Positions 4,228 to 36,645 of a DNA stretch of 38,310 bases are shown piece after piece. Every line of letters starts with the position of its first letter. Positions within the stretch are counted from its first letter, which is position 1. The notes beneath the pieces were generated by a model, which did no database searches, was not told where the DNA came from, and worked only from the letters and a program-made list of their open reading frames with translations. The DNA lies in sequence record PX946180.1; one strand, written 5' to 3'. This stretch comes from a phage. The position numbers and the translations under genes were made by a program.

Positions 4228-4250
4228 ACTTAACTATCACTATAGGGAAG
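4228..4250 (+). promoter_or_regulatory. phage RNAP promoter (phiOR-like), +1 G at 4245
   Basis: TTAACTATCACTATAGGGAAG matches the window consensus; sits between terminase and the genome-end region as T7 phiOR does. Confidence 0.7.
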
Positions 4251-4430
4251 ACCCCCGGTTACTTATAGTATTACTGTAGTGAATATACATATGCAGACTT
4301 TATGCAAGACCTTAGGAGGCAGACTCCGAGTTCTTACCTAAGGCTTGCACCGATGGAAGGAGGGTGATATTAATCATAATCCCTCCAATACAGATAGTCA
4401 CCGACCATAGATACAGGAGGTATGTAGCAT

Positions 4431-4589
4431 ATGGCAAAGACCAAAGCTGTACTCAAAGCTCTGGCGACCAATCGAGCTACATACAGGTTTCTTGCTGCTG
4501 TTCTACTTGCTTCTGGCGTTACTGCTGGAAGTCAGTGGGTCGGGTGGGTCGAGACTCTCGTATGTTCTCTGGTGTCTCAGTGTAATTAA
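4431..4589 (+). CDS. small hypothetical membrane protein (gene 19.5 position)
   Basis: 52-aa ORF with AGGAGG 10 nt upstream and a hydrophobic core; below the 60-aa tracker threshold; preferred over the overlapping tracker ORF 4364..4585. Confidence 0.4.
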   Translation: MAKTKAVLKALATNRATYRFLAAVLLASGVTAGSQWVGWVETLVCSLVSQCN

Positions 4590-4865
4590 TGCAATCATGG
4601 TAACGATTCATGAAAGGAGGTAATATGATTGGTTATGGCGAAGGATGAAGAGCTAAGGTCAGTACGTGGATAAAGACTCACTCTACTGACCTTAGCTACT
4701 GTAGTCAAGGACTTTAGGTAACACCCTTCAGGCTCTCACTTCTGGTCTACCTACTGATTGGTTCACTGGTCGTCATCCGATGGCATTAGACCTACGGTCC
4801 TTGACCTACAGTAGCTGGCTCCTAAGGAGGGACGATGAGTTTTGGACCAAAAGTTTGAGACCACA

Positions 4866-5090
4866 TCTCACAGTTCAAGAACCTCAAGTCTCCCCATAGG
4901 CCCTCTTTCAGTCCAGACCAAAGGCCCTACCCCTAGACCTTCGGTCTAAACTTCAGGTCATTGACTCAAGGTCTACCCTAAGTCATGACGATAGGTCAGG
5001 GCTATGGCTGGTGGTCAGGACGATAGGTAGGGACTATGGGTCTTCTTTGAGTCTCTATCTGTATCAGACCTTGAGTCACTACCTACAGTC
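4866..5090 (+). repeat. candidate terminal-repeat (DTR) region of the linear genome, collapsed to one copy in this assembly; right boundary approximate
   Basis: Starts with TCTCACAG as the T7 left end does, followed by T7-like elements CCCCATAGG, ACCTTCGGT, CCCTAAG and GTCTCTATCTGTATCAG; comparison is from memory of the T7 terminal repeat. Confidence 0.35.
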
Positions 5091-5165
5091 TAACTACCTA
5101 CAGTATAACTACCTACAGTCATCAACCATCGGTAATGCCGCTACCTACAGTCAGAGACCTACAGT
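5077..5165 (+). repeat. short tandem repeat array (A)CTACCTACAGT(C), five copies
   Basis: Direct copies at about 5077, 5091, 5105, 5140 and 5155; analogous to the CCTAAAG-type repeat arrays just inside T7 genome ends. Confidence 0.7.
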
Positions 5166-5269
5166 TAATAGACACAAAGGATATAGACTTAAGGTCTAAG
5201 ACATGTTAGTCAAAGACTATAGCCTCTTACACCATGGGGTCGACGATAGCTTAATCGATATTATTTCAA

Positions 5270-5450
5270 ATTACCTATTGACTATAGGTCTAGACTATGG
5301 CTTAATAGCTTCCGTCAACACGACACGGCAACAACCGGATAGTGAAGACGCCGGGTCATCCCGGTTAAGTAGACAGCCTGATAAGTCGTACGAACAACAG
5401 GCAGATGACAGAAAGTAGTTGACAAGCAGTGACGATACGATGTAAGCTGT
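5270..5450 (+). promoter_or_regulatory. early host-RNAP promoter region (candidate sigma70 promoters, A1-A3 equivalents)
   Basis: TTGACT at 5278-5283 with possible -10 CTTAAT after 17 nt; TTGACA at 5419-5424 followed by TACGATGTA.CCACAT resembling T7 A3; region 5350-5400 resembles recalled T7 sequence CCGGATAAGTAGACAGCCTGATAAGTCG; exact -10 elements are ambiguous. Confidence 0.45.
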
Positions 5451-5636
5451 ACCACATCGAAACAACGGTGAAGACCAACACTGAAACGGTCTACCTGAAG
5501 TCTTCTGACTGAAGGGAATGCTCTTTAACAATCTGGATAACTCTTAATGTGCGCCGATAGCGACTAACTACAGGGTCTTTGAGTCTACACCTGAAGGCCC
5601 TGACTGATAGTCACTAACAACTGAGAGGATATAACT

Positions 5637-6143
5637 ATGGAACGTAACGCTAACGCATACTATGACCTGCTGGCTGCAACCGTTAAAGCATTTAACGAAC
5701 GTATTCGGTCCGACGAAATAGCTGAAGGTGATGACTACCACGATGCGCTGCATGAAGTCGTAGACGGTCAGGTTCCGCTCTATTACCACGAGATTTTTAC
5801 GGTGATGGCTGCTGATGGCATAGACCACGAGTTCGAAGACTCTGGGCTGATGCCTGAGACCAAGGACGTAACGCGCATACTGCAAGCTCGCATCTATGAG
5901 GCACTGTATAACGACGTGTCTAATAGCTCGGATGTGGTCTGGTTTGAGGCTGAAGAGAGCGACGAAGGGGATAAGTATTGGGTAGTTGACGCTAAAACGG
6001 GACTATTCGTTGAGCAAGCTGTACCTCTTGAGGTCGCTATTGCATCTGCCAAAGACCTCTATGCGGTAGGTCATCACATGAAAGTCGAAGACATTAACGA
6101 TAACGTAGTGTTCGACCCTGCGGCTGAAGAGGACTGCGAGTGA
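5637..6143 (+). CDS. ocr: Ocr-like anti-restriction DNA mimic (gene 0.3) with extra ~65-aa C-terminal extension
   Basis: 168 aa; VPLYYHEIFTVMAADGIDHEFEDSGLMPETKDVTRILQARIYE closely matches recalled T7 Ocr core; first gene after the early promoter region. Confidence 0.85.
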   Translation: MERNANAYYDLLAATVKAFNERIRSDEIAEGDDYHDALHEVVDGQVPLYYHEIFTVMAADGIDHEFEDSGLMPETKDVTRILQARIYEALYNDVSNSSDVVWFEAEESDEGDKYWVVDAKTGLFVEQAVPLEVAIASAKDLYAVGHHMKVEDINDNVVFDPAAEEDCE

Positions 6144-6301
6144 TGGTAACTTATGGTCTCTGCCAGCATCACGTCACCAACGCCCGGCTTATGGTCAAGA
6201 CCGGGCAATTAAACCACGATGCGACTATGCGTCACCTGAAAGTGGTCTACGAGGGCCGCAAGTGCATACACGACAGTGAGGACAAGCCAAATGATAACTG
6301 A
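6143..6301 (+). CDS. hypothetical early protein (52 aa)
   Basis: ATG overlaps the Ocr stop (TGATGG); uninterrupted 52-codon ORF; no recognised homolog. Confidence 0.4.
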   Translation: MVTYGLCQHHVTNARLMVKTGQLNHDATMRHLKVVYEGRKCIHDSEDKPNDN

Positions 6302-6464
6302 AGGTTCAATCATAGAGTATCGTTGTGAACAAGGTTATAACCTGAAAGGTAAGGTGTCTCAGGTCTATACTTCAGTAACAGGTAAGCGCTGCGTGGAGCT
6401 GACAAGTGGTGTGCGGATAGGTCTACATGAATGTAGGCTGCTGAATAAGCCAAGAACTGAGTGA
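6291..6464 (+). CDS. hypothetical early protein (57 aa; tracker ORF 6276..6464 trimmed to internal ATG)
   Basis: ORF in tracker list; GAGG about 10 nt upstream of ATG 6291; overlaps previous ORF. Confidence 0.4.
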   Translation: MITEGSIIEYRCEQGYNLKGKVSQVYTSVTGKRCVELTSGVRIGLHECRLLNKPRTE

Positions 6465-6467
6465 TAG

Positions 6468-6506
6468 ACGAGAGGTCATCGACTGATAGGTGGCCTCAAA
6501 GATTAC
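6468..6506 (+). promoter_or_regulatory. R1.1-like RNase III element (R0.5 position)
   Basis: GAGGTCATCGACTGATAGGTGGCCTCAAAGATTA, a diverged copy of the motif at 1423/9884/17126. Confidence 0.4.
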
Positions 6507-6530
6507 CACTTACATTGATAGGAGTTAACT

Positions 6531-6698
6531 ATGAAATTTACAGTCATCGCGCTTTACGTCACCATCATTCTGTCTTGGCTGACTGCGGTCATAGCCGATG
6601 GGAATGCACTACGCCTTGGTTGGCTGGCAGTTGATATCATATTCTCTCCGGCAGGGGTAGTGAGGGGCATCTTGATGTGGTTTGGATTGGCGGGATAA
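6531..6698 (+). CDS. small hydrophobic early protein (55 aa)
   Basis: GGAG RBS 7 nt upstream; sequence MKFTVIALYVTIILSWLTAVIA.. is predicted membrane-spanning. Confidence 0.5.
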   Translation: MKFTVIALYVTIILSWLTAVIADGNALRLGWLAVDIIFSPAGVVRGILMWFGLAG

Positions 6699-6701
6699 AC
6701 T

Positions 6702-6899
6702 ATGAGTCTTGCACTATTGATAGCCATAGGCTATGGACTTATCGCCTACGTGCTGGTGAGAGACATCAACAAAGCGCGTAAAGTCTACAACTTCAATTAT
6801 GTACGCCTGGGCCGCTGGACTGTGCGTCAACCTAACGGGCGTTTCATGCGCAACCTCGCGAACGTCTGGGATATAGCAACTCTTGGGAGCAAACTGTAA
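6702..6899 (+). CDS. small hydrophobic early protein (65 aa)
   Basis: Tracker ORF; N-terminal TM segment MSLALLIAIGYGLIAYVLV; tightly packed with neighbours. Confidence 0.5.
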   Translation: MSLALLIAIGYGLIAYVLVRDINKARKVYNFNYVRLGRWTVRQPNGRFMRNLANVWDIATLGSKL

Positions 6900-7159
6900 T
6901 GAAAACCGTATACACACACAAACCATCAAGCCGCAGCCGCATGGAACAAGCGCAGCGTGATATGTTCTTACAACGCCGCATGAGAGCTGAGGGCCATAAG
7001 TCCGAACTGATGTGTCTGGCGTATGGTGGACGACCAATCACTGACGATGGTAAACTTCTGGTCTCAGGCTGGAAGGCGATAGACCAACGGTCAACCATCA
7101 AGCACACGACCGAAGGAGACTTCAGCCATCTACACGCTAACCCTCTGATATGCAAGTAA
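6899..7159 (+). CDS. hypothetical early protein (86 aa)
   Basis: Tracker ORF; start overlaps previous stop; occupies the position where T7 has gene 0.7 but shows no kinase similarity. Confidence 0.5.
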   Translation: MKTVYTHKPSSRSRMEQAQRDMFLQRRMRAEGHKSELMCLAYGGRPITDDGKLLVSGWKAIDQRSTIKHTTEGDFSHLHANPLICK

Positions 7160-7164
7160 TTATG

Positions 7165-7187
7165 ACTTAACTATCACTATAGGACTC
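7165..7187 (+). promoter_or_regulatory. phage RNAP promoter directly upstream of the RNAP gene, +1 G at 7182
   Basis: TTAACTATCACTATAGGACTC; followed by GACTCAAGGTC motif. Confidence 0.65.
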
Positions 7188-7256
7188 AAGGTCTAAGACT
7201 CAAAGTGAAAGACCAAAGAGACTTTAAGTGAAAGACTAATAACAAGGACTTTAAGT

Positions 7257-9104
7257 ATGAGCGTCATCTCTATTGACAAACACGACTTCTCTGATGTGTC
7301 GAACGCCATTGAGCCGTTTAACCTGCTGGCTGACCACTACGGGCAAGACCTCGCAGTAAAGCAGCTTCAGCTTGAGCATGAGGCATACACTGAAGGCGAG
7401 CGACGTTTCATCAAGAACCTTGAGCGCCAGACTGAGCGCGGGGAACTGGCAGACAATCAGGTCGCCAAGCCTTTGATGCAGACTCTGGTCCCGACCATCG
7501 CTAAGGCTTTCCGTGAGTGGCATGAAGGCCCGGACGGTAAGTCCTCGACCTCTCGTCCAAGCGTAGCGTTCACCATGCTGAGCACTGACGAGAAGGCTGT
7601 CAAAGACCGCTCTCTGCTCATCTCTGCGGAGTCTGCTGCGGTCATCATACTGAAGGTCATTCTCAGCAAGCTGGTCAAGCCTGAAGGCATCCCGATAACT
7701 CCTATGGCGTCCGCGATAGGTCGAACACTGGAAGATGAAATCCGCTTTGGTCGCATCCGTGATCAGGAGAAGGAGCACTTCAAGAAGGCGATAGCTGAGA
7801 ACCTGAACAAGCGCGCAGGGGTATCCTACAAGAAAGCCTACATGCAAGCGGTTGAGACCTCCATGTTGGAGCAAGGCCAACTGGAAGATGCCTGGGGAAC
7901 TTGGAGTCCGACCGAGGCGGTCCATGTTGGCATCAAGATGCTTGAGATTGTCATCCAGTCTACTCAACTGGTAGAGCTTAAGCGTTATGGTGCTGGCAAT
8001 GCAGCGGCGGACGTTGAGATGGTCCACCTGTCAGACTTCTGGGTCAAGAAGATGGCTCAGCGTGGCTTCTCTCTTGCGGGAATCGCTCCAGTCTACCAGC
8101 CATGCGTAGTTCCGCCTAAGCCGTGGACCGGGGTGGTGGGTGGTGGGTACTGGGCTAAAGGCCGAAGACCACTACCACTGATTCGCTTAGGGTCTAAGTC
8201 TGCGGTGGCACGTTACGAAGATGTATACATGCCTGAAGTCTACGACGCTGTGAATATCATTCAGAATACACCTTGGAAAGTGAACAAGAAGGTTCTGAAC
8301 GTGGTGAACATGGTCGAGAAGCTGAACAACACGCCTATTGATGACATCCCTCAGATGGAACCGCTGAAGCCTGAGGACTATGCGGGTGAGACTGAAGAAG
8401 AACTTAAGGCATGGAAGAAAGCTGCTGCCGGTATCTATCGCCGCGAGAAGGCCCGACAGTCACGAAGATTGTCACTGAGCTTTATCGTTAACCAAGCGAA
8501 CAAGTTCTCTCAGTTCAAGGCTATCTGGTTCCCGTATAACATGGATTGGCGAGGTCGTGTCTACGCTGTCCCGATGTTCAACCCTCAGGGTAACGACATG
8601 CAAAAGGGACTCCTGACTCTGGCAGTCGGTAAGCCTATTGGTGCTGATGGTTTCAAATGGCTGAAGGTACGCAAGAAGGATACCACTCGTCTGAACCTGA
8701 TGTTCTTAGGGTCATTCAACCTTCAGCCTACAGTCAACAAAGGCGCGAAGAAAGAGCTTGACAAACACAAGCAGGAGTCAGGTATTAGCCCGAACTTCGT
8801 CCACTCACAAGATGGCAGTCACCTCCGCAAGACTGTAGTCCACACGCACCGCAAGTATGGCGTGATGTCGTTCGCAGTGATCCACGATAGCTTCGGGACC
8901 ATCCCGGCTGACGCTGAGTATCTGTTCCGTGGTGTCCGTGAGACGATGGTCGAGACCTACCGCGACAACGATGTGCTGCTTGACTTCTATGAGCAGTTTG
9001 AATACCAGCTTCATGAGAGCCAGCGCGACAAGCTGCCAGAGCTTCCGAAGAAAGGTGAACTGAATATCGAAGACATCCTGTCTTCAGACTTTGCATTCGC
9101 TTAA
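7257..9104 (+). CDS. T7-like single-subunit RNA polymerase with ~268-codon internal in-frame deletion (catalytic motifs A and B missing; probably non-functional)
   Basis: 615 aa versus 883 aa for T7 RNAP; N-terminal ~464 aa and C-terminal ~151 aa are collinear with T7 (promoter-binding domain, specificity loop, HKQESG..FVHSQDGSHLRK, IHDSFGT, terminal FAFA); junction GFKWLK/VRKKDTTRLNLMFLG at about 8664-8669; no DGSCSG or TLAYGS motif anywhere in the ORF. Confidence 0.85.
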   Translation: MSVISIDKHDFSDVSNAIEPFNLLADHYGQDLAVKQLQLEHEAYTEGERRFIKNLERQTERGELADNQVAKPLMQTLVPTIAKAFREWHEGPDGKSSTSRPSVAFTMLSTDEKAVKDRSLLISAESAAVIILKVILSKLVKPEGIPITPMASAIGRTLEDEIRFGRIRDQEKEHFKKAIAENLNKRAGVSYKKAYMQAVETSMLEQGQLEDAWGTWSPTEAVHVGIKMLEIVIQSTQLVELKRYGAGNAAADVEMVHLSDFWVKKMAQRGFSLAGIAPVYQPCVVPPKPWTGVVGGGYWAKGRRPLPLIRLGSKSAVARYEDVYMPEVYDAVNIIQNTPWKVNKKVLNVVNMVEKLNNTPIDDIPQMEPLKPEDYAGETEEELKAWKKAAAGIYRREKARQSRRLSLSFIVNQANKFSQFKAIWFPYNMDWRGRVYAVPMFNPQGNDMQKGLLTLAVGKPIGADGFKWLKVRKKDTTRLNLMFLGSFNLQPTVNKGAKKELDKHKQESGISPNFVHSQDGSHLRKTVVHTHRKYGVMSFAVIHDSFGTIPADAEYLFRGVRETMVETYRDNDVLLDFYEQFEYQLHESQRDKLPELPKKGELNIEDILSSDFAFA

Positions 9105-9116
9105 CAGGAGAGAGTT

Positions 9117-9317: not shown

Positions 9318-9395
9318 CAGGCCTACAGTTGCTGGCCTTGTGGCTGGGAGCACTCGCAGTATTCACTTTAATCCAACGCAGAAGAGGTTAACCCT

Positions 9396-9866
9396 ATGTT
9401 CGGTAAGTCAAAACTTGAAGCACAAATCGTAGAGTTGAGCATGAAGGTGGCATACTTGGAGCGAGCCGTAAAGGTCCGGGATAAGGACAACGAGAGACTG
9501 AAGGCTAAACTTGCTGAATCAGAGCGTAAGCGCCTAACGCCACCAGCGGCTGTAACTGTCAAGCGTATGGTCGGCATCAAGTTCAAGGAACTGTTCGACG
9601 GTAAGTATCAGCCCACTGAGTTCAAGATAGGTCTTGGAAAGTGTGGAAAGGTGGTTCACTACTTCGAGGTGACTAAGCGTGACTACCTGACGATTACCAT
9701 CCACCAGTACCACACAGACGGGTCATCTAAGGACTTTGAGTATCGACTTAGCGACATCGACGGTCGTATACAGTACGACTACGAGCCGATGCAGGTCTAC
9801 GGTGAGGAGGCAGAGCAGGAACGTATAGTCCAAGCCTTCCGCAACAGACCACGATTCGTACCCTAA
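9396..9866 (+). CDS. hypothetical early protein (156 aa), N-terminal coiled-coil
   Basis: Tracker ORF; GAGG RBS; charged heptad-like N-terminus (KLEAQIVELSMKVAYLERAVKVRDKDNERLKAKLAESERK); no recognised homolog. Confidence 0.6.
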   Translation: MFGKSKLEAQIVELSMKVAYLERAVKVRDKDNERLKAKLAESERKRLTPPAAVTVKRMVGIKFKELFDGKYQPTEFKIGLGKCGKVVHYFEVTKRDYLTITIHQYHTDGSSKDFEYRLSDIDGRIQYDYEPMQVYGEEAEQERIVQAFRNRPRFVP

Positions 9867-9884
9867 ACTATCACTATAGGATTA
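9862..9884 (+). promoter_or_regulatory. phage RNAP promoter (phi1.1-like), +1 G at 9879
   Basis: CCTAAACTATCACTATAGGATTA. Confidence 0.75.
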
Positions 9885-9928: not shown

Positions 9929-9957
9929 TAAATAAACACTACTGGAGATTTAACCAC

Positions 9958-10137: not shown

Positions 10138-10141
10138 GGCT

Positions 10142-11472: not shown

Positions 11473-11483
11473 CTAAACGTCAA

Positions 11484-11520
11484 CCCAGTGGTCTTCGGAC
11501 TGCTGGGTTTCTTTGCTTTG
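11484..11520 (+). terminator. rho-independent terminator, T7 TE equivalent
   Basis: 10-bp stem CCCAGTGGTC/GACTGCTGGG (two G-U pairs) with TTCG tetraloop followed by TTTCTTTGCTTTG; located just after the ligase gene as T7 TE is. Confidence 0.8.
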
Positions 11521-11554: not shown

Positions 11555-11577
11555 CCTAAGCTATCACTATAGGACAA
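11555..11577 (+). promoter_or_regulatory. phage RNAP promoter, +1 G at 11572
   Basis: CCTAAGCTATCACTATAGGACAA. Confidence 0.75.
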
Positions 11578-12510: not shown

Positions 12511-12669
12511 ATGACTGAGGTTGAGAAGAAGTACATCGTGGAGCTTGAGGGTCGCGTTCAGTCCTTCGAGGTTCCGGTGTACGCAAAATCTCTTGAAGAG
12601 GCTACCCTGAAGTCCCAAGAGTATGAGGACGCTGGGTTTGTGGTCGGACGGATTCGTCCTGAGACCTAA
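12511..12669 (+). CDS. gp2-like inhibitor of host RNA polymerase
   Basis: 52 aa; [15 protein letters not shown]...[10 protein letters not shown] matches recalled T7 gp2 (HSFEVPIYAETLDEA...AGFEVTRVRP). Confidence 0.8.
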
Positions 12670-12687
12670 ACTATCACTGTAGGACAG
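12665..12687 (+). promoter_or_regulatory. phage RNAP promoter variant (phi2.5-like), +1 G at 12682
   Basis: CTAAACTATCACTGTAGGACAG, one substitution in the TATA core. Confidence 0.6.
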
Positions 12688-13425: not shown

Positions 13426-13427
13426 TC

Positions 13428-14918: not shown

Positions 14919-15134
14919 ATGATTAAACTCATCGAATTTCTTGGTCGTCTGGTGGTGCGTGGCTATCGTCGGGCTGCGGCTATGGAACGAAAGGTAGCAG
15001 CGAAGACTGCTGACGGTGCGGCTGATGCTGCTGCTCTGGCTGACAAACTGACCATCGCGTCACTGGAAGCTGGCATGAAGGCACGTCAAGCTGACACCAA
15101 AGCTGACCAGTTGGCTCAGTTCTTCAAAGACTAA
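14919..15134 (+). CDS. small conserved hypothetical protein (71 aa)
   Basis: Tracker ORF with AAGGAG RBS; N- and C-terminal motifs (LIEFLGRLVVRGY...QLAQFFKD) resemble a small T7 middle-gene product I recall only imperfectly. Confidence 0.55.
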   Translation: MIKLIEFLGRLVVRGYRRAAAMERKVAAKTADGAADAAALADKLTIASLEAGMKARQADTKADQLAQFFKD

Positions 15135-15152
15135 ACTATCACCTTAGGGATG
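15130..15152 (+). promoter_or_regulatory. degenerate phage RNAP promoter (phi4-like), +1 G at 15147
   Basis: CTAAACTATCACCTTAGGGATG, two mismatches to consensus in the -5 to -1 region. Confidence 0.45.
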
Positions 15153-19792: not shown

Positions 19793-19998
19793 GTGAATAC
19801 TTACGGGTCCTAGCGGCCCTTAAGTCCTGCCCGAAGACCTTCCAGTCCAACTATGTGCGCAACAACGCTGCACTGGTGGCTGAGGCTGCGAGTCGTGGAC
19901 ATCTGAGCTGCCTGTCTATGGACGGGCGTAACAACGGTGCGTGGGAGATTACCGCTGCTGGCACCAAGTTCCTGAACCAACACGGAGGCTGTCTATGA
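19789..19998 (+). CDS. gp5.7-like protein
   Basis: 69 aa; LKSCPKTFQSNYVRNNA.LVAEAASRGH.SCL...GRN.GAWEITA.GT.FL...GGC nearly identical to recalled T7 gp5.7. Confidence 0.9.
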   Translation: MSEYLRVLAALKSCPKTFQSNYVRNNAALVAEAASRGHLSCLSMDGRNNGAWEITAAGTKFLNQHGGCL

Positions 19999-21213: not shown

Positions 21214-21236
21214 ACTAAACTATCACTATAGGGACT
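21214..21236 (+). promoter_or_regulatory. phage RNAP promoter (phi6.5-like), +1 G at 21231
   Basis: CACTAAACTATCACTATAGGGACTT. Confidence 0.8.
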
Positions 21237-21297
21237 TTAGGACCTAAGATATGACTATAAGATAGACTTTAGTCTTAACTTAAAGAGGAGATTCAAG

Positions 21298-21813: not shown

Positions 21814-22218
21814 ATGCTACCATATCTCAACTCACGCGAAGGTCGCCACATGTGTGCCTGTCGCCTCTGGGAAGACGGGCAGTCTAACTTCAAGTCATTC
21901 GAGGACTTCAAGGCTCATACTTACCGTATGGCTGACGAGTTCGATGGTGAAGAGTACACAATCTACGATGTCGCAGGTCAACCAGTAGCGTATCTCTACA
22001 TGCTGGCTACAGCATCTTGGCACCGACCGACTCCCGGTCTTGACCTTTCAATCGTCGCTATTCGTCGTGACTCGCAGTCCTCCCGCAAGGTTCTTGAGAC
22101 TGTCAGGCATATCATAGACGAAGAGTGCAAGCGTTGGGGTCTTGGCTGGTATTCTCGTGTCAAGCATGTTTCCGGGTCGGTAGACATCGTAACAACTAAG
22201 GAGATTAATCGTGGGTAA
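21814..22218 (+). CDS. gp7-like protein (assigned by position and size)
   Basis: 134 aa tracker ORF between the gp6.7 and gp7.3 homologs. Confidence 0.6.
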   Translation: MLPYLNSREGRHMCACRLWEDGQSNFKSFEDFKAHTYRMADEFDGEEYTIYDVAGQPVAYLYMLATASWHRPTPGLDLSIVAIRRDSQSSRKVLETVRHIIDEECKRWGLGWYSRVKHVSGSVDIVTTKEINRG

Positions 22219-22470: not shown

Positions 22471-24039
22471 ATGGCTGAACGTGAAGGGTTCGCTGCTGAA
22501 GGAGCCAAAGCGGTCTATGACCGACTGAAGAACGGTAGACAGCCATATGAGACACGCGCTCAGAACTGTGCTGCTGTCACTATCCCGTCACTGTTTCCTA
22601 AGGAGTCCGATAACTCGTCTACTGAGTATACAACTCCGTGGCAAGCTGTAGGTGCTCGCTGCTTGAACAACTTGGCTGCAAAGCTGATGTTGGCGTTATT
22701 CCCTCAGTCACCGTGGATGCGACTAACAGTCTCCGAATATGAGGCCAAGACCTTGAGTCAAGACTCAGAGGCTGCTGCTCGTGTTGACGAAGGGCTGGCT
22801 ATGGTCGAGCGTGTATTGATGGCCTACATGGAGACCAACAGTTTTCGTGTGCCATTGTTCGAAGCTCTGAAGCAGCTTATCGTCTCCGGTAACTGTCTGC
22901 TCTACATTCCAGAGCCTGAACAGGGAACCTACAGTCCTATGCGAATGTACCGCTTAGTGTCTTACGTTGTTCAACGTGATGCTTTCGGTAATATCTTGCA
23001 GATTGTGACTCTCGACAAGGTAGCGTTCAGTGCTCTACCGGAAGACGTGAAGTCACAACTCAACGCAGACGACTATGAGCCTGACACCGAGCTGGAAGTG
23101 TATACGCACATCTATCGTCAGGACGACGAGTATCTACGCTATGAGGAAGTTGAAGGCATTGAGGTAGCAGGGACCGAGGGTTCCTACCCACTTACTGCAT
23201 GTCCATACATCCCGGTACGAATGGTTAGACTTGACGGTGAAGACTATGGTCGTTCTTATTGCGAGGAGTATCTGGGAGACCTGAACTCGCTGGAGACGAT
23301 TACAGAAGCTATCACCAAAATGGCTAAGGTAGCCTCCAAGGTGGTTGGCCTCGTTAACCCGAACGGTATCACGCAACCTCGTCGTCTGAACAAGGCGGCT
23401 ACAGGTGAGTTCGTGGCTGGTCGCGTTGAGGACATCAACTTCCTGCAACTGACGAAGGGTCAGGACTTTACGATTGCTAAGTCGGTAGCTGACGCTATCG
23501 AGCAACGTTTAGGCTGGGCCTTCCTTCTTAATAGTGCTGTTCAGCGTAATGCCGAGCGGGTCACTGCTGAAGAGATTCGTTATGTTGCTGGCGAACTGGA
23601 GGCGACCTTAGGTGGCGTGTACTCAGTACAATCACAAGAGCTTCAGTTACCTATAGTCCGTGTGCTGATGAACCAGCTTCAGTCTGCTGGCATGATTCCT
23701 GACCTCCCGAAAGAAGCGGTAGAGCCTACGGTCTCCACTGGTCTGGAAGCGTTAGGTCGTGGTCAAGACTTAGAGAAGCTGACTCAGGCAGTCAACATGA
23801 TGACCGGGCTACAGCCTCTGCAACAGGACCCAGACATTAACTTGCCGACCCTGAAGCTGCGACTGCTGAATGCCTTAGGCATTGACACCGCTGGTCTGCT
23901 GCTGACTCAGGACGAGAAGTTACAACGTATGGCTGAACAATCAGCTCAAGGAGCTGTGGTCAACGGTGCGTCTGCTGCTGGTTCTACTATGGGTGCTGCT
24001 GTAGGTCAGGGAGCTGGTGAGGACATGGCTCAAGCCTAA
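22471..24039 (+). CDS. portal (head-tail connector) protein (T7 gp8-like)
   Basis: 522 aa; size and position after gp7.3 as in T7 (536 aa); AGGAGG RBS. Confidence 0.9.
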   Translation: MAEREGFAAEGAKAVYDRLKNGRQPYETRAQNCAAVTIPSLFPKESDNSSTEYTTPWQAVGARCLNNLAAKLMLALFPQSPWMRLTVSEYEAKTLSQDSEAAARVDEGLAMVERVLMAYMETNSFRVPLFEALKQLIVSGNCLLYIPEPEQGTYSPMRMYRLVSYVVQRDAFGNILQIVTLDKVAFSALPEDVKSQLNADDYEPDTELEVYTHIYRQDDEYLRYEEVEGIEVAGTEGSYPLTACPYIPVRMVRLDGEDYGRSYCEEYLGDLNSLETITEAITKMAKVASKVVGLVNPNGITQPRRLNKAATGEFVAGRVEDINFLQLTKGQDFTIAKSVADAIEQRLGWAFLLNSAVQRNAERVTAEEIRYVAGELEATLGGVYSVQSQELQLPIVRVLMNQLQSAGMIPDLPKEAVEPTVSTGLEALGRGQDLEKLTQAVNMMTGLQPLQQDPDINLPTLKLRLLNALGIDTAGLLLTQDEKLQRMAEQSAQGAVVNGASAAGSTMGAAVGQGAGEDMAQA

Positions 24040-24057
24040 ACTATCACTATAGGAACA
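24035..24057 (+). promoter_or_regulatory. phage RNAP promoter (phi9-like), +1 G at 24052; transcript starts with a 9-bp stem
   Basis: CCTAAACTATCACTATAGGAACAACG; inverted repeat GGAACAACG (24052-24060) / CGTTGTTCC (24091-24099). Confidence 0.8.
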
Positions 24058-25014: not shown

Positions 25015-25037
25015 ACTAAACTATCACTATAGGGAGA
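25015..25037 (+). promoter_or_regulatory. phage RNAP late promoter (phi10-like), +1 G at 25032; 5' stem-loop in the leader
   Basis: GACTAAACTATCACTATAGGGAGACCA, best match to the T7 class III TATAGGGAGA start; leader GGGAGACC...GGTTTCCC can form an 8-bp stem as in the T7 phi10 transcript. Confidence 0.85.
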
Positions 25038-25139: not shown

Positions 25140-25839
25140 ATGGCAAACGTTCCGGGTCAGAAAATTGGTACAGACCAAGGTAAAGGCAAATCCAGTTCCG
25201 ACGCTAATGGCTCTCCTGTGTAACCTCCCGGCTGCATCCAACGAGAACATTGCCGGTCTGGGCACTGCGTCAGTACTTGAAGTTGGTACTAAAGCCGACC
25301 TGAACACTCCGGCTAAGCTGGGTGAAGCAATCATCGGTCAACTGACCATTGCTCGTGCGAAGCTGACCTCCAACTACGTTCCTGCTGGCGACCGTTACTT
25401 CTACACCACGCCGGACAACTACTCTGCAATCCTCGCGGCTCTGATGCCGAACGCTGCCAACTATGCTGCGCTGATTGACCCAGAGACTGGTAACATCCGT
25501 AACGTGATGGGCTTCGTTGTTGTTGAAGTCCCGCATCTGGTGCAGGGTGGTGCTGGTGAGACCCGTGGTGACGATGGCATCACTATCGCTTCCGGCCAGA
25601 AACACGCATTCCCGGCGACTGCTGCTGACGATGTTAAAGTTGCTATGGACAACGTTGTGGGTCTGTTCTCTCACCGTTCTGCTGTGGGTACTGTGAAGCT
25701 GCGTGACTTGGCGCTGGAACGTGACCGTGACGTCGATGCTCAGGGCGACCTGATTGTTGGTAAGTACGCTATGGGTCACGGCGGCCTGCGTCCAGAAGCG
25801 GCAGGCGCACTGGTTTTCACAGCGGCGCTGGGGGGTTAA
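25140..25839 (+). pseudogene. major capsid protein gene (gene 10A), disrupted: first 16 codons and last ~205 codons present, ~120 central codons missing, junction out of frame
   Basis: ATG 25140 with RBS encodes MANVPGQKIGTDQGKG (matches the recalled T7 gp10 N-terminus) then stops at 25221-25223 after 27 codons; the +1 frame from about 25213 encodes LCNLPAASNENIAGLGTAS... to the stop at 25839, collinear with T7 gp10A residues ~145-345; only ~810 nt separate the phi10 start site from the capsid stop. Confidence 0.8.
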
Positions 25840-26102: not shown

Positions 26103-26105
26103 TTG

Positions 26106-26148
26106 AAACCCCTTGGGTGCCTTCGGGTGCTTGAGGGGTTTTTTTTGC
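26106..26148 (+). terminator. rho-independent terminator, T7 Tphi equivalent
   Basis: AACCCCTTGGGTGCCTTCGGGTGCTTGAGGGGTTTTTTTT: GC-rich hairpin followed by a run of eight T; directly after the capsid gene as T7 Tphi is. Confidence 0.85.
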
Positions 26149-26161
26149 TTAAGGAGGTCCT

Positions 26162-29346: not shown

Positions 29347-29369
29347 CCTTAACTATCACTATAGGGACT
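29347..29369 (+). promoter_or_regulatory. phage RNAP promoter (phi13-like), +1 G at 29364
   Basis: CCTTAACTATCACTATAGGGACTA. Confidence 0.8.
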
Positions 29370-30452: not shown

Positions 30453-32735
30453 ATGGCTAGTAATATTGAATCAGCTCTGGCTAATCGGACAATGGGTCGT
30501 GGCAGAGCGCCGGGTAAAACTATAGCCGTCAACTATCAAGCAGCGAACGTTCAGGCGCCCACTGGTGACTCTGGTCTGGCGCGTGCGTTAACTAACTTCG
30601 TTGAGTCTGGGACTGGATTGTACAAGCAGTTCAAAGACGAGGAGAAGACCAGAGCTGACGAGCGGTCTAACGAGATTATCCGTAAGCTAACTCCTCAGCA
30701 GAGACGAGAGGCTATCCAGAACGGCACATTGCTGTATCAGGATGACCCTTACGCTATGGAAGCACTTCGAGTCAAGACTGGTCGTAATGCTGCCTTTGCT
30801 GTAGACGACGAGATTAACGTTAAGATTCAGAACGGTGAGTTCCGTACACGTCAGGAAATGGAAGAATATCGCCACCAGCGACTTCAGGATGCCGCTAAGT
30901 CCTATGCTGAAGAGGCGGGTATTAACCCTACCGACGAGTTCTTCCAGCGTGGATTCAACGATAACATCACTGACCGAAACATCGCTATCTACGGGTCCTT
31001 CAATAAATATTTCAGCAAGCAGTCTGAAGAGACAGCAATGTTGAACACTCGTATTGAGATGAACTCATTCCTGAACGATGGCGACCTGATGCGTTCACCT
31101 GAGTCTGGCAAGACCTTCATGGCCTACCTTCGTGATGGACTAACTACTGCTGCTATCCCCTCGGACCAGCGAGCGCGGGAGGTCATTACCCAGACGGTAC
31201 GTGACGCAATCCAGAAGTCAGGCGGCTCAAACTTCCTACAGCAAGTACGAGGCGAGCGAATCACCCTTAACGGCGTGGATGCTACAGTAGAAGAGATTGT
31301 AGGACCCGATGTCTTCAACGCTGCTATTGTTGAGGCACAAGGAACTGAGTACAAGCTGGTGGCTAAGTATCAGGAAGACTTAGCGTTAGGCGTTCAGTCT
31401 GCGATTCTTCAGGATGACCCAACCATCGGTCTGGCCCAGATTCAAAAACTCAAGGAGCAGAACAACCAGCTTCAACCCGGTGAAGAACTCACTCCTCAGC
31501 GCCAGATGCTTATTAACGCCGAAGCCACACTACTGGAAGCGGTAAAGCGTAAGTCTGCTGAACAGGCAAAGGAGAACACGAAGTTAATTCAGACCCAGAA
31601 CAAGCAACTGGTCATTGATCAAGTTTATCAGCGACGTCTTGCTGGGGACAACGTGTCCACCAACTATGAGGACCTTCCGGTCTCTGAAGCCACAGGAGAG
31701 TTCAAGCGTTCAGACATGAACAACTATGCGTCTGCTAAGCTACAGCAGATTGACCAGATGGACATCCCTGAGGCTGCTAAGGACGCACAGAAGGTTGCAT
31801 TATTAAGAGCTGACACTAACAACGGTCCGTTCCGTAATGCCTTCCAAACTCTTACTCAGGACGCTGCTGGTGAGTGGCAAGCTGCCGTCATCCGTGGACA
31901 GTACGACCCAGACAAGATGAAACGCTTCGAGTCTCTTCGTCGTGCCTACACTCAGGACCCTTCAAGTTTCGCTGCTCTGTATCCTGACCAAGCTCAGTTG
32001 TTCTCTACGTTCGACCAGATGGACAAGATGGGCCTTGACCCTCAGACGATGATTGAAGCTGATAAGCAAGCTGCAAGTCAAAGCCGTGAGATGCGCATGG
32101 AGTCAGACAAGGCGTGGCAGGAGCTGAAGAACGACTCCAAGAACACCCAGTTGTCTCGCCTCCCAACGTCTCTGGACTCAAGTGCTCGTAAGGTCTGGGA
32201 CTCATGGTACTATCGTACAGGTAACGCTGACGCTGCAACTCAGCAGACTCAACGTTGGCTGAATGAGAACACCGTAACGTTCCAGTCTGAAGGTTCTGAC
32301 GGTAAGTCAATCGGCATGGTGTCGAAGCACCAGCTTATGGTCGGGGATAACCCAGAGTCGTGGCAGGTGGGTCGAGACATTATCGACACAGCTCGTCAGC
32401 AGCTCATTAAGGCCAACCCTTGGGTAGTGAACTCTCAGTTGTCCGTTGTTGAACAGAACGGCTCTATCTTCCTCCAAGACGCTACAGGTACTATTCGTAT
32501 TCGCTACGATAAGGAACTTGTAGGTAAACTCTACCGCGAACAACAGCAAAAGGCACAAGACGCCGCATATGCTCAGGCAGAACGTGACGCTAACAAGCGA
32601 GCGCGTATCGTCGGAACTAAAGCTGCTGGTGACAAACGTCGAGCTGACCGAGAGGCCAACATCGAGAAGAGCGGTGGGATGTACAATGACGTCTCACTGG
32701 AGGGTATCGCAAACGTACTAATCGGTAAGGAGTAA
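30453..32735 (+). CDS. internal virion protein C (T7 gp15-like), ejectosome core
   Basis: 760 aa versus 747 aa in T7; position between gp14 and gp16. Confidence 0.8.
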   Translation: MASNIESALANRTMGRGRAPGKTIAVNYQAANVQAPTGDSGLARALTNFVESGTGLYKQFKDEEKTRADERSNEIIRKLTPQQRREAIQNGTLLYQDDPYAMEALRVKTGRNAAFAVDDEINVKIQNGEFRTRQEMEEYRHQRLQDAAKSYAEEAGINPTDEFFQRGFNDNITDRNIAIYGSFNKYFSKQSEETAMLNTRIEMNSFLNDGDLMRSPESGKTFMAYLRDGLTTAAIPSDQRAREVITQTVRDAIQKSGGSNFLQQVRGERITLNGVDATVEEIVGPDVFNAAIVEAQGTEYKLVAKYQEDLALGVQSAILQDDPTIGLAQIQKLKEQNNQLQPGEELTPQRQMLINAEATLLEAVKRKSAEQAKENTKLIQTQNKQLVIDQVYQRRLAGDNVSTNYEDLPVSEATGEFKRSDMNNYASAKLQQIDQMDIPEAAKDAQKVALLRADTNNGPFRNAFQTLTQDAAGEWQAAVIRGQYDPDKMKRFESLRRAYTQDPSSFAALYPDQAQLFSTFDQMDKMGLDPQTMIEADKQAASQSREMRMESDKAWQELKNDSKNTQLSRLPTSLDSSARKVWDSWYYRTGNADAATQQTQRWLNENTVTFQSEGSDGKSIGMVSKHQLMVGDNPESWQVGRDIIDTARQQLIKANPWVVNSQLSVVEQNGSIFLQDATGTIRIRYDKELVGKLYREQQQKAQDAAYAQAERDANKRARIVGTKAAGDKRRADREANIEKSGGMYNDVSLEGIANVLIGKE

Positions 32736-32739
32736 CATA

Positions 32740-35700
32740 ATGGCGACTCGTGGTATTCGCAATAACAATCCGGGGAACATCCGGGTAAGTAAGGACCAAT
32801 GGGAAGGAATGACTGGAGATGATGGCGCATTCGTCACCTTCGATAGTCCAGAGTCTGGCGTCCGAGCTTTAGGTAAAAACCTGCTGTCCTACGGTCGCCA
32901 AGGATATGACTCCATCGAGAAGATTATCAACCGATGGGCACCTCCTAACGAGAACGACACTCAGGCTTATATTGACTCAGTGGTGGCTGCGACTGGTATT
33001 CCAGCTACCCAGAGTCTAGACCTCTCTGACCCGGACACCCTGTCTTCTCTGGCACAAGCTATCAGCTTCCATGAGACAGGCTCCCGGTACGACCCTGAAG
33101 TCTATCAGCAGGGAGTCGCAAGAGCACTCAACGGTATCAGCCCAAAGACTCCACCAGTAAGCGCTAACGTATTTGACGCCCTCACGGAAGGACTCAAGGC
33201 TAAACCTAAAGTAGCTCTGGGCGAGAACCTTCCGACCGCTGCTGGTCTAAACATTGAGGGTCAAGCACCTGAAGCTCCCAACGAATCGTTCGGTGAGATG
33301 TTCTATAAAGCTACTGGGGAGACCATGCAGGAACGAGAGGACCGCTCTACGTGGTTCGGTTTCGGTGCGGCTACAGAAGCTGAAGTGAAGAACTCTATGG
33401 TCGGCGTGGCTATCCGCGCTGGTCAGACCGAGGACTCACTTGATGTCATTGGCGATGTGTTCAACCCGACCCGCTGGAACAACCATAAGTGGTCTCGTGA
33501 GGAGCTGGACCAGATTCGTAACTCTGGGGTTCTGCCTCAGTATTATGGGGTAATTACTGGTGGCTCCCCTCAGAACCTGACCGAGCTTATTAACTTGGCG
33601 CTTGAGAACCAGAAGTTGGACCAAGAGAAGGCCAAGGCCGGGACTGGCGCTCAGTTAGCCGCTGGTGTGATTGGTGCTGGTGTAGACCCGCTGACCTACG
33701 TTCCTATCGCTGGACAGGTTGGCAAAGGTGGTAAGCTGGTCAACAAGATGTTCACCGTGGCTGCTCAATCTGGAGCACTTGCTGGTGTATCAGAGATGGC
33801 CCGCACCTCAGTGGCTGGTGGTGATGCTCATGTGGCTGAGGCTATCCTTGGTGGTGCTCTCTTCGGTGGTGGCATGACGGCTATCGCTGATGGACTAGGC
33901 AGAGCCTTAGGTCGTAACACTAACGAGTTCGCTGGCCCAGCTACACGTCTGGAAGCTCGTGAGACAGCCCGTAACGTTGATGGTCAGGACCTGTCTCGTC
34001 TCCCTATTCAGGAAGGTGAGCAGACCTTTAGTCATCAAGGCGTTAAGTTCGCTGACGTTCCGAATGAGCCAGGCAGTGTACGACTTGAAGATGGTTCAAT
34101 CCTGATTGGTGAGAACCCTCTGAACCCTAAGACACGTCAAGTCTTTGACGAAGTGATTGAGCCGGAACGTGCAGCTGCTGGTGTGAACCTTGGTGGGCTA
34201 ACTGAGATTGGCCTGAAGCTGCTTCGGTCAGAGAACCCTGAGATTCGTGGAGTCGCTGCCGACTTAGTGCGCTCACCGACTGGTATGCAGTCAGGGGCCT
34301 CAGGTAAAATCGGGACCACTGCGTCAGACGTATTCGAAAGACTTCGTGCTGTGGACCATCGGTTCTACAACGACATCGATGATGCGGTTACTGAGGCACT
34401 AAAGGACCCGTACTTCCAGACAGCATTCTGGAGAGACTCTGGCGCATTCCGTCAGGACATCTACCAGCGTGTGTCTATGGCTATCGAAGATGGTAGTGGG
34501 AACCTGAAGGCTGAACTGACTCCGGGAGAACTGAAAGTCTATGACCTGCTGAAGAACCAGTTCGACGCCAAGCGTGAGATGATGGAGAACCCGGCTATGT
34601 TTGGTCGCCCAGACGCTCAGTCTATCTTTCCGGGTAGCCGCTTCAAGGGAACCTACGTCCCTCATGTGTATAGCAAACAGATGAAGGATTTGTACATCAA
34701 GGAGCTTGGTAGTCCAGAGGCGTTGCAGGAGGCCATCAAAAAGTCATGGTTGACCAGCTATGCGTCTCGACCTGAAGTCAAGAAACGCGTGGACGAGGCA
34801 CTCTTAGAGGCTGACCCTACGTTGACTCCAGAGGGACTTTCTGCTGCGGTCGATAAGTACGCCAACGATAAGGCTTACGGTATCTCTCACACCGAGCAGT
34901 TCGAACGTTCATCCGTAATGGAAGAGAACATCAACGGTCTGGTTGGTCTGGAGAACAACAGCTTCCTTGAGGCTCGTAACCTGTTCGATAGCGATATGTC
35001 AATCGTCCTGCCTAACGGTCAGACCTTCAGTGTCAACAACCTGCGTGAGTGGGACATGGACAAGATTGTCCCGGCCTACAACCGTCGAGTTAATGGCGAT
35101 ATTGCTATCATGGCTGGTACAGGCAAAACCACGAAGGACATGAAGGACTTGGTTGAGACCATGATGAACAAGGCTGGGGATGACGGTAAATTGAAAGGTG
35201 AGGTATCTACCTTACGTGACACCTTGAAGATTCTCACTGGTCGTGCTCGACGTGATGGTGCTGATGATGCAGCCTTCGCTACAGTGATGCGCACAATGAC
35301 AGACCTATCGTTCTTCGCTAAGAATGCCTATATGGGTGTTCAGAACTTAACGGAGATTGGTGGTATGCTGGCTCGTGGCAACGTTCGCGCCCTGCTGCAT
35401 GGAGTCCCGATGTTCCGTGACCTAGCCTTCCGTAACAAGAAGGTAGGGGCTTCAGAGATTAAGGACCTGCACAATGTTATCTTCGGTAAGGAACTGGATG
35501 ACTCAATCCGTCCGTCTAAACAGGATGTCATTGACCGTCTGCGGTCTTACAGTGACCTTGGTCGTGGTACAGCTACAGCTCTGGGGACTGCCAAGTATTA
35601 CACTGGTGAACTTGCAGTACGCTCTCCGTTCACTAAAGTCCTCAATGGTACGACCAACTACCTGTTAGATGCTGGACGTCAAGGCTTCCTGTCTGACATC

Positions 35701-36627
35701 GTTGAGCATAGCCTGACTGGTAGTAAGCGTAAGTTCGATGACCGCTGGCTGAAGACCGCTGGTATATCTGACGAGCAGTGGAATGGCATTAAGTCCCTAA
35801 TCCGTGAGTCAGTGACTCGTGGTCCAGACGGGAAGTACACCATCAAGGATAAGAAGGCGTTCAGTCAGGACCCAAGAGCTATGGACCTGTGGCGTATGGG
35901 TGACACCATCGCTGACGAAACGTTACTCCGTCCTCATAAGCTGTCCAACATGGACGCCAAGGCTTATGGTCCTCTCGCTAAGACTGTCCTTCAGTTTAAG
36001 AACTTCGTCATCAAGTCCATCAATGGGAGAACCATGCGAACCTTCTATAACGCCACGAAGAACAACCGAGCGATGGATGCTGCTCTGTCCACTGTGATGT
36101 CTATGGGACTTGCCGGTATCTACTACATGGCTCAGGCGCACGTCAAGGCTTACGCTATGCAGGATGGTCGAGACCGTGATTACCTCAAGCAAGCTCTGGA
36201 CCCGACGATGATTGGCTATGCGGCTCTGTCCCGTAGTTCACATCTGGGTGGTCCACTTGGGGTAGCTAACATTCTGGGTGGCATCGCTGGGTATGAGGAC
36301 ACTAAGATGCTCCGTTCGTCTATCCTACCCCGTTCGCCTACAGAGAAGCCTGAGCGTGCCATCGCGTATGGTGCAGCTACAAGTGACCCTGTGATGAATG
36401 TTGTTGGTAACTTCTTGGAGCAGGTCCCAGCTTTCGGATATGCTGCTAACGTAGGCGCTTCGGCTTACAACTTGGCTGGCTACCTCAAGGCTGATACTCG
36501 TGTCAACGAGCGTGACTACATGACCGGGATGTATAATACGTTCCGTGAACTGGTTCCGAACGACCCCATTACCCAGAAGCTGTTGCTTGGAACGTTTGAA
36601 GAGCAAGGCATCCACATCAAGGACTAA
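32740..36627 (+). CDS. internal virion protein D (T7 gp16-like) with non-T7 N-terminal domain
   Basis: 1295 aa; from about residue 200 onward collinear with recalled T7 gp16 (RLEARETARN, VRSPTGMQSGASGK, KAYGISH, RRVNGDIAIM, LRPHK, ALSRSS); the first ~130 aa carry GIRNNNPGNIR instead of the T7 transglycosylase TESRF region. Confidence 0.9.
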   Translation: MATRGIRNNNPGNIRVSKDQWEGMTGDDGAFVTFDSPESGVRALGKNLLSYGRQGYDSIEKIINRWAPPNENDTQAYIDSVVAATGIPATQSLDLSDPDTLSSLAQAISFHETGSRYDPEVYQQGVARALNGISPKTPPVSANVFDALTEGLKAKPKVALGENLPTAAGLNIEGQAPEAPNESFGEMFYKATGETMQEREDRSTWFGFGAATEAEVKNSMVGVAIRAGQTEDSLDVIGDVFNPTRWNNHKWSREELDQIRNSGVLPQYYGVITGGSPQNLTELINLALENQKLDQEKAKAGTGAQLAAGVIGAGVDPLTYVPIAGQVGKGGKLVNKMFTVAAQSGALAGVSEMARTSVAGGDAHVAEAILGGALFGGGMTAIADGLGRALGRNTNEFAGPATRLEARETARNVDGQDLSRLPIQEGEQTFSHQGVKFADVPNEPGSVRLEDGSILIGENPLNPKTRQVFDEVIEPERAAAGVNLGGLTEIGLKLLRSENPEIRGVAADLVRSPTGMQSGASGKIGTTASDVFERLRAVDHRFYNDIDDAVTEALKDPYFQTAFWRDSGAFRQDIYQRVSMAIEDGSGNLKAELTPGELKVYDLLKNQFDAKREMMENPAMFGRPDAQSIFPGSRFKGTYVPHVYSKQMKDLYIKELGSPEALQEAIKKSWLTSYASRPEVKKRVDEALLEADPTLTPEGLSAAVDKYANDKAYGISHTEQFERSSVMEENINGLVGLENNSFLEARNLFDSDMSIVLPNGQTFSVNNLREWDMDKIVPAYNRRVNGDIAIMAGTGKTTKDMKDLVETMMNKAGDDGKLKGEVSTLRDTLKILTGRARRDGADDAAFATVMRTMTDLSFFAKNAYMGVQNLTEIGGMLARGNVRALLHGVPMFRDLAFRNKKVGASEIKDLHNVIFGKELDDSIRPSKQDVIDRLRSYSDLGRGTATALGTAKYYTGELAVRSPFTKVLNGTTNYLLDAGRQGFLSDIVEHSLTGSKRKFDDRWLKTAGISDEQWNGIKSLIRESVTRGPDGKYTIKDKKAFSQDPRAMDLWRMGDTIADETLLRPHKLSNMDAKAYGPLAKTVLQFKNFVIKSINGRTMRTFYNATKNNRAMDAALSTVMSMGLAGIYYMAQAHVKAYAMQDGRDRDYLKQALDPTMIGYAALSRSSHLGGPLGVANILGGIAGYEDTKMLRSSILPRSPTEKPERAIAYGAATSDPVMNVVGNFLEQVPAFGYAANVGASAYNLAGYLKADTRVNERDYMTGMYNTFRELVPNDPITQKLLLGTFEEQGIHIKD

Positions 36628-36645
36628 ACTATCACTATAGGAAAC
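36623..36645 (+). promoter_or_regulatory. phage RNAP promoter (phi17-like), +1 G at 36640; imperfect 5' stem follows
   Basis: GACTAAACTATCACTATAGGAAACGG; inverted repeat AAACGGGAG / CTCCGTTT within the first 35 nt of the transcript. Confidence 0.8.

Follow-up and report, generated by a model that had tools for sequence, protein, structure and literature searches.

Eleven predicted promoters of the known K1F/Kayfunavirus class in a phage genome record with internal deletions in its RNA polymerase and major capsid genes

We analyzed a phage DNA of 38,310 nucleotides (sequence record PX946180.1; the whole stretch is hereafter called the window), focusing on a 23-bp motif that recurs on its + strand and on gene 1, which encodes the phage RNA polymerase (RNAP). 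Comparison with phage records assigned the window to Kayfunavirus (Autographiviridae, Studiervirinae) as a K1F/EcoDS1-like genome of the T7 family: 84–86% of its first 25 kb aligned at approximately 92% nucleotide identity to several Kayfunavirus records, and the RNAP region and first 25 kb matched some 200–700 phage records, the best of which were Kayfunavirus (K1F, EcoDS1, ST31, and LM33_P1-like phages). Fifty EcoDS1 proteins were located in the window in T7 order, with full synteny with Kayfunavirus records. An earlier reading of the letters alone (the sequence-only reading) had described eleven phage-type promoters, one of them directly upstream of the RNAP gene, in a genome lacking a functional RNAP. 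The predicted promoters and terminators, with their EcoDS1 counterparts, and the remnants of gene 1 and of gene 10 (major capsid) lie as follows.

4228..4250, + strand: phiOR-equivalent promoter ACTTAACTATCACTATAGGGAAG, predicted +1 G at 4245; 23-mer identical to EcoDS1 phiOR at 38500; it lies 94 nt downstream of gene 19 and is followed by gp19.5 and the terminal-repeat region
7165..7187, + strand: promoter directly upstream of gene 1 (RNAP), predicted +1 G at 7182; 23/23 identical to EcoDS1 'phi' 2244–2266, K1F 2474, and vB_EcoP-101118UKE1 (UKE1) 12378
7257..9104, + strand: gene 1 remnant, an in-frame open reading frame (ORF) of 615 amino acids, by alignment to EcoDS1 gp1 and T7 gp1 (NC_001604)
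9862..9884, + strand: phi1.1-like promoter, after gene 1.05 and before gene 1.1; overlaps the stop of the ORF ending at 9866; EcoDS1 6034
11482..11519, + strand: TE-like early terminator after the ligase gene; EcoDS1 'TE' annotation
11555..11577, + strand: phi1.6 promoter with one deviation, TAAGCTATC; EcoDS1 phi1.6 at 7725
12665..12687, + strand: phi2.5 promoter, CACTGTAGG variant, overlapping the gene 2 stop; EcoDS1 phi2.5 at 8719
15130..15152, + strand: promoter before gene 4, CACCTTAGG variant, with the weakest score (30.8 bits); EcoDS1 11107
21214..21236, + strand: phi6.5 promoter, full consensus; EcoDS1 phi6.5
24035..24057, + strand: phi9 promoter, overlapping the gene 8 stop; EcoDS1 phi9 at 19813
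25015..25037, + strand: phi10 promoter, the sole copy with the full GGGAGA start; EcoDS1 20819
25140..25827, + strand: gene 10 (major capsid) remnant, ATG at 25140, junction 25205|25206
26105..26152, + strand: T-phi-like terminator after gene 10; EcoDS1 terminator annotation 22122–22157
29347..29369, + strand: phi13 promoter; EcoDS1 phi13 at 25367
36623..36645, + strand: phi17 promoter, overlapping the gene 16 stop; EcoDS1 phi17 at 33040

We searched both strands of the window for the 17-mer TAAACTATCACTATAGG, allowing up to three mismatches. Eleven matches were found against 0.06 expected by chance, all on the + strand (4230, 7167, 9864, 11557, 12667, 15132, 21216, 24037, 25017, 29349, and 36625), and their starts coincided, with an offset of 2, with the starts of the eleven 23-mers reported earlier. 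A position weight matrix (PWM) was then built from the eleven 23-mers and scanned on both strands. The eleven sites scored 30.8–37.2 bits, the next position (21243) scored 14.7 bits, and all others scored 6.6 bits or less, leaving a gap of approximately 16 bits; the number, strand, and positions of the copies were thus reproduced. The perfect form CT[AT]AACTATCACTATAGG was present in 8/11 sites, and the other three carried one or two deviations. Consensus copies precede the late genes 6.5, 9, 10, 13, and 17, and copies with one or two deviations precede the middle genes 1.6, 2.5, and 4. All sites are co-oriented with the genes and lie just upstream of gene blocks, with leaders of 34–186 nt to the next ATG.

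The copies had been described as always intergenic, which was true of six of the eleven; the other five (9862, 12665, 15130, 24035, and 36623) reach 5 nt into the 3' end of the ORF before them. At these five sites the promoter TAA (−15 to −13) doubles as the upstream stop codon, namely that of gp1.05 (9864–9866), gp2 (12667–12669), a gp3.7-like ORF (15132–15134), gp8 (24037–24039), and gp16 (36625–36627). Sharing a stop codon and a promoter in this way packs coding and regulatory signals compactly together.

The eleven sites paired one to one, without any change of order, with the 'phi' promoters, also eleven, that the EcoDS1 entry in GenBank (EU734172) annotates, i.e., those before gene 1, after gene 1.05, phi1.6, phi2.5, before gene 4, phi6.5, phi9, before gene 10, phi13, phi17, and phiOR; the 23-mers were identical or one base off. 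K1F (DQ111067) and UKE1 carry the same promoter set. EcoDS1 and K1F share with the window the number of promoters, their order, and their gene neighbourhoods, including a copy that starts 92 bp before the gene 1 ATG, and TE and T-phi stand at the same places. The promoters do not distinguish the window from these two phages; what does is a genome diverged by approximately 8%, a different tailspike receptor-binding domain, and two private deletions. A degenerate promoter-like copy accompanies the phi6.5 site:

21243..21265, + strand: degenerate promoter-like copy CCTAAGATATGACTATAAGATAG, PWM 14.7 bits

This copy lies 29 nt downstream of the phi6.5 site and is identical in K1F, EcoDS1, and UKE1; it may be the vestige of a tandem promoter or belong to a processing site.

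The sequence-only reading had noted that the motif departs from the T7 consensus and had concluded that the phage has its own promoter specificity. The first part stands, as the motif differs from T7 TAATACGACTCACTATAGGGAGA at eight upstream positions (−17, −16, −15, −14, −12, −11, −10, and −9), and the phi10 copy matches the T7 promoter exactly from −8 to +6. The second part does not, since the specificity is the one already known for K1F and Kayfunavirus: both the core CACTATAGG and the class-specific bases at −9 to −12 (AACTAT) were present. The specificity loop encoded in the window, RLNLMFLGSFNLQ, is of the K1F type; it keeps the equivalents of T7 R746, N748, and Q758 and carries S and N at T7 positions 754 and 756 (Q754 and R756 in T7), as in all K1F-type enzymes, and loop and promoter co-vary across lineages. 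In a 2025 paper in the Journal of Biological Chemistry, the minimal promoter of the related Ro45Iw RNAP was determined by in vitro transcription as ACTTAACTATCACTATAGGGA (PMC12272871). This sequence equals the first 21 bases of the 4228 site, and the other sites in the window are one to three bases off; that study used purified full-length enzyme, whereas the window encodes only a core-deleted version. The same CTWAACTATCACTATAGG repeats have been reported at the 3' ends of coding sequences in Kayfunavirus Sparklingdew (2026; PMC13298934), and the pairing of K1F specificity loop and promoter is in established use as an orthogonal system (PMC11880802). Judged by these matches, the eleven repeats are phage-RNAP promoters of known K1F/Kayfunavirus specificity, already annotated and experimentally supported in relatives; as promoters, they are nothing new.

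We also considered whether the repeats are dispersed elements of a different kind, for instance signals for recombination, packaging, or replication. The single point in favour of this is that the promoter assignment in the window comes from sequence comparison. However, the core CACTATAGG is identical to that of T7 promoters; the sites, without exception, point the same way immediately in front of gene blocks, and short leaders connect them to a ribosome-binding site and ATG; annotated and experimentally validated promoters are among their homologues; from lineage to lineage they change with the RNAP specificity loop; and initiation by a K1F-type RNAP has been shown for an identical minimal sequence (PMC12272871). 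We regard a non-promoter identity as extremely improbable.

The layout is also T7-like. As with the class II and III promoters of T7, the sites in the window have a 23-bp architecture with a +1 G and occur as consensus copies before late genes and variants before middle genes; also shared are the 5' hairpin of the gene 10 leader, the T-phi that follows gene 10, and a phiOR close to the right end. T7 has 17 promoters against the 11 of the window, which, unlike T7, lacks a phiOL. Stem-loops had been proposed behind the late promoters at 24035, 25015, and 36623. Transcripts from the first two would open with a stable hairpin (z scores of −4.9 and −5.1); that at 36623 was weak (−1.5), and two sites that had not been listed, 9862 (−3.8) and 15130 (−2.8), were followed by comparable hairpins, the one at 15130 beginning at +1.

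Next, we assessed the copy in front of gene 1. It ends 69 nt before the ATG at 7257, in agreement with the distance of about 70 bp given previously, and its predicted +1 G leaves a leader of 75 nt. The sequence-only reading had T7 without a phage promoter at this place, and the T7 record bore this out, with only E. coli promoter C (3113) and phiOL (405); the weak E. coli promoter C is all that T7 has where the window carries a phage promoter immediately ahead of gene 1. Both the 23-mer and the 75-nt leader were near-invariant in ten relatives. We then surveyed 80 RNAP loci from IMG/VR, 78 contigs of which were scorable, for a promoter within 600 nt of gene 1, with RNAP identity measured to EcoDS1 gp1. 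The promoter was present in 21/21 contigs with an RNAP at least 79% identical, with a distance of 76–103 nt from +1 to the ATG of gene 1, and absent from all 57 at 58–63% identity.

Within this clade, the promoter changes together with the enzyme. In a lineage with a T3-like loop (RLDLMFLGTFRLQ), the gene 1 promoter is TTAAACCCTCACTATAGG, a motif that recurs five times per genome in both genomes concerned; a third lineage, with the loop RIKLMFMGVQYRP, has GGAAGGTACACTATAGG there, which occurs again after gene 1. The specificity-switched relatives are L047/L028 (IMGVR_UViG_2974571109_000001 and IMGVR_UViG_3300045988_000030), which pair the T3-like loop with ..AAACCCTCACTATAGG, and L025 (IMGVR_UViG_2700988933_000001), which pairs a different loop with GGAAGGTACACTATAGG; their RNAPs are 88% and 79% identical, respectively. 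They represent natural pairs of RNAP and promoter co-evolution inside one clade. These comparisons indicate that the gene 1 promoter is a conserved clade trait, not a peculiarity of the window genome, and that it co-varies with the specificity loop. Because it has been retained through changes of specificity, it is probably functional and selected. Its simplest reading is that it gives the RNAP positive feedback, which is most likely its role. The leader itself (7182–7256) showed 0–2 differences among relatives against the genome-wide divergence of approximately 8%, and it contains two internal repeats, AAGTGAAAGAC and GACTTTAAGT, each present twice. A search of the leader for an RNase III-like or other structure gave no significant predicted fold.

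The enzyme that would read these promoters is incomplete in the window. The gene 1 product has 615 amino acids compared with 893, because a single block of 278 codons (834 bp) is missing, cleanly and in frame, with the junction at 8669|8670. The gap corresponds to T7 residues 463–739 and removes D537, K631, and Y639, i.e., the catalytic palm/fingers core; the N-terminal domain, the specificity loop, D812, and the C-terminus are kept. In the Pfam RNA_pol profile, the window gp1 covers positions 284–376 only, compared with 1–376 in EcoDS1. A K1F-type loop (RLNLMFLGSFNLQ) is thus encoded, yet in an enzyme without T7-equivalent residues 463–739. No other polymerase ORF was found in the window, where every ORF of useful size was assigned to a T7-family homologue. 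An insertion of the 834 bp in the relatives, as an intron or intein, was rejected; the segment encodes the conserved palm/fingers core and is present in T7 too.

Could the 615-amino-acid product still be active, or another polymerase of the window read the promoters? The ORF is in frame, and its product retains the promoter-binding domain at the N-terminus, the specificity loop, and the HDSFG/FAFA motifs at the C-terminus. Against this, the product lacks D537, which is one of two catalytic aspartates, K631 and Y639 of the O-helix, and approximately 280 positions of the RNA_pol profile, and all other ORFs of useful size are T7-family homologues. We consider residual activity or a second polymerase very remote; the alignment argues that gene 1 as given cannot encode an active enzyme. 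The statement of the sequence-only reading that the genome cannot make a working cognate polymerase therefore applies to the sequence as given.

That reading did not record a second lesion, in gene 10, or that both lesions are private and fresh. Gene 10 runs for 22 native codons and then meets a 350-bp frameshifting deletion at 25205|25206, which leaves a 27-amino-acid stub; residues 140–346 persist in another frame. Because gene 10 is deleted besides gene 1, the window genome is doubly defective. The complete set of essential genes of an autonomous lytic phage is absent, with gene 1 lacking 278 codons and gene 10 lacking 350 bp and shifted in frame. The other essential genes gave full-length single alignments to EcoDS1 proteins, and the remaining length differences from EcoDS1, UKE1, and K1F were accessory-gene polymorphisms, each common to at least one relative.

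Neither deletion was seen in the relatives. The gene 1 junction was bridged by 0/199 records of the phage collection, and each listed relative aligned across the gene 10 junction as two segments separated by 350 bp. Among the 80 IMG/VR RNAP loci, none had an internal RNAP deletion, and the exact 30-mer of the gene 1 junction was absent from viral, metagenome, and genome collections. In the remnants, the window-private substitutions were synonymous to nonsynonymous at 52:6, 9:2, and 7:0 (68:8 in total), as in intact genes; by this pattern, purifying selection acted on the remnants until practically the present. The same 68:8 count led us to reject an old pseudogenisation or a satellite lifestyle of long standing. 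Both deletions are private to the window contig, look very recent, and are not a trait of the lineage.

The bases shared at either junction amounted to 0–1 bp of microhomology. A comparison of 8620–8669 with the right deletion boundary of the relatives showed an 11-bp direct repeat, CTGATGGTTTC, whose two copies both encode DGF and, in relatives, precede the gene 1 deletion boundaries by 15 and 18 nt. The gene 1 junction is not the product of recombination across CTGATGGTTTC, and at most 1 bp is shared at either junction; deletion mediated by microhomology or repeats was therefore rejected.

The form of the contig bears on how the junctions arose. Positions 1–127 of the window are identical to 38184–38310, giving a unique length of 38,183 bp; the window is a circularly permuted, circularised SPAdes-type contig with the signature of a k=127 de Bruijn graph. 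It is cut inside gene 17, and a broken gene 17 at the window ends was rejected, given the 127-nt end identity and an ORF that is intact (782 amino acids) once the overlap is removed. Since a k=127 graph needs a shared 126-mer and the flanks of the deletions share none, the junctions must have existed in the sequenced molecules or have been edited in later.

We weighed two explanations for the deletions. The first is an artefact, either an edit made after assembly or rare molecules, chimeric or deleted, that the assembler promoted, in which case the real phage has intact genes 1 and 10. Spontaneous deletions in T7 usually form between short direct repeats, and both junctions here show 0–1 bp of microhomology. 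An artefact also agrees with junctions found in no Kayfunavirus record (approximately 200) and no IMG/VR RNAP locus (n=80), with the absence of the exact junction 30-mer from viral, metagenome, and genome collections, and with remnants that show no relaxed selection. Furthermore, a phage without RNAP and capsid cannot form plaques, yet the contig is a clean, isolate-style circular SPAdes assembly. On the other side, a k=127 de Bruijn assembler cannot join flanks without a shared 126-mer, and the searches turned up no intact parent sequence: a 35-mer from the left flank found seven contigs, all approximately 92% identical with a full-length gene 1 and none of them the parent, and exact-protein look-ups (gp1, gp16, and gp19) and an exact tailspike 41-mer gave no match. 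On balance, we give an artefact an even chance. If the deletions arose during or after data generation, the paradox of promoters without a polymerase is itself an artefact.

The second explanation is that the contig is an abundant helper-dependent deletion genome (a defective-interfering (DI) genome or 'cheater') propagated by a co-infecting intact Kayfunavirus. Both deletions lie wholly inside genes for diffusible, trans-acting proteins, and all 11 promoters, both terminators, the terminal repeat, and the other essential genes are intact, the pattern expected of a DI genome, in which cis elements are kept. Complementation by a helper is plausible because all examined Kayfunaviruses share identical promoters. 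Packaging of the T7 type is site-specific, not headful, and a genome 1.2 kb shorter would be packageable if packaging is site-specific here. In addition, the junctions must occur in the sequenced molecules unless the contig was edited. Laboratory T7 phages with gene 1 deleted, grown on RNAP-supplying hosts, and the DI genomes of other viruses likewise keep their promoters and receive polymerase in trans; in the window, by contrast, the capsid gene is broken too, and there is no known complementing host or helper. Recurrence in independent samples was not seen, the gene 1 junction 30-mer being absent from the viral, metagenome, and genome collections and both deletions from the relatives searched, and there was no sign of a helper or of interference; the junctions were found nowhere else in the collections searched. 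Two independent deletions dominating one population is also a demanding scenario. Our literature search on T7 cheaters and DI genomes returned nothing directly relevant and no report of natural T7-family DI genomes, and to our knowledge such natural genomes have not been described for T7-like phages. We consider a helper-dependent genome possible but doubtful. Less likely still is the fuller version, in which the contig is a true abundant cheater and the helper polymerase over-expresses a promoter-binding, inactive RNAP fragment from the dead gene 1.

Taken together, we consider it very probable that the eleven repeats are the cognate promoters of the Kayfunavirus single-subunit RNAP, acting as in T7, and that the circuit is broken in the sequence as given. 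Each promoter would span −17 to +6, start at the G of TATAGG, and be read by a single-subunit RNAP as in T7. The specificity loop (RLNLMFLGSFNLQ) would read −8 to −11, and the N-terminal domain would read the AT-rich stretch at −13 to −17 and melt TATA. Transcription would proceed rightward through the gene blocks to TE (11482) or T-phi (26105). Host RNAP would make the first phage RNAP, after which the phage enzyme would transcribe its own gene from the copy whose start is 75 nt before gene 1. In the window, this circuit would be broken by the deletion of the gene 1 catalytic core and of gene 10, and the genome could use its promoters and form particles only if a helper Kayfunavirus supplied both proteins.

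Three points weigh against this account. We infer the start sites and the feedback role of the gene 1 promoter from homology, conservation, and covariation. The near-invariance of the gene 1 leader is not accounted for by RNA structure, as the leader showed no significant fold. Finally, the origin of the deletions is split between an artefact or edit, which we place at about one half, and a real helper-dependent variant, which we find clearly less probable. With either origin, the paradox of promoters without a polymerase belongs to a defective or artefactual assembly or record, not to the phage lineage.

Two further features were located between the phiOR-equivalent promoter and gene 1.

4866..5056, + strand: direct terminal repeat in a single assembled copy (approximate), marking the physical genome ends; both the end and the start of EcoDS1 and K1F align here, with overlap
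5278..5454, + strand: early promoters for host sigma-70 (5278–5314 and 5419–5454), with annotated homologues in EcoDS1

The early region, with the gene 1 remnant in it, would be transcribed from these sigma-70 promoters. On the immediate right of the terminal repeat, positions 5078–5165 hold a cluster of five + strand ACCTACAGT copies, which includes a 15-bp tandem array of 2.9 copies; the whole window holds 10 copies against 0.46 expected. This cluster resembles the short repeat arrays adjoining the T7 concatemer junction. An Rfam scan of the whole window gave 0 matches. The C-terminal two-thirds of gene 17 (37337–38310 and 1–857) encode the tailspike receptor-binding domain, a right-handed beta-helix, which had no near DNA match in the phage collection. 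In a protein search, the closest matches to gp17 were 86–91% identical over part of its length, and a more distant set (approximately 70%) came from Enterobacter genomes. These matches suggest that the domain is a horizontally acquired host-range module, possibly for a non-K1 host.

For annotation, the promoters provide a complete transcription map of the window genome by transfer from EcoDS1 and K1F. The two deletions are mainly a curation warning, as the record cannot be an autonomous phage; they would be of interest only if they came from a true helper-dependent population. For the clade, the promoter in front of gene 1, kept through at least two specificity switches in every relative with an RNAP at least 79% identical and absent at 58–63%, is a comparative result of modest value and good evolutionary evidence for selected positive feedback of the RNAP.

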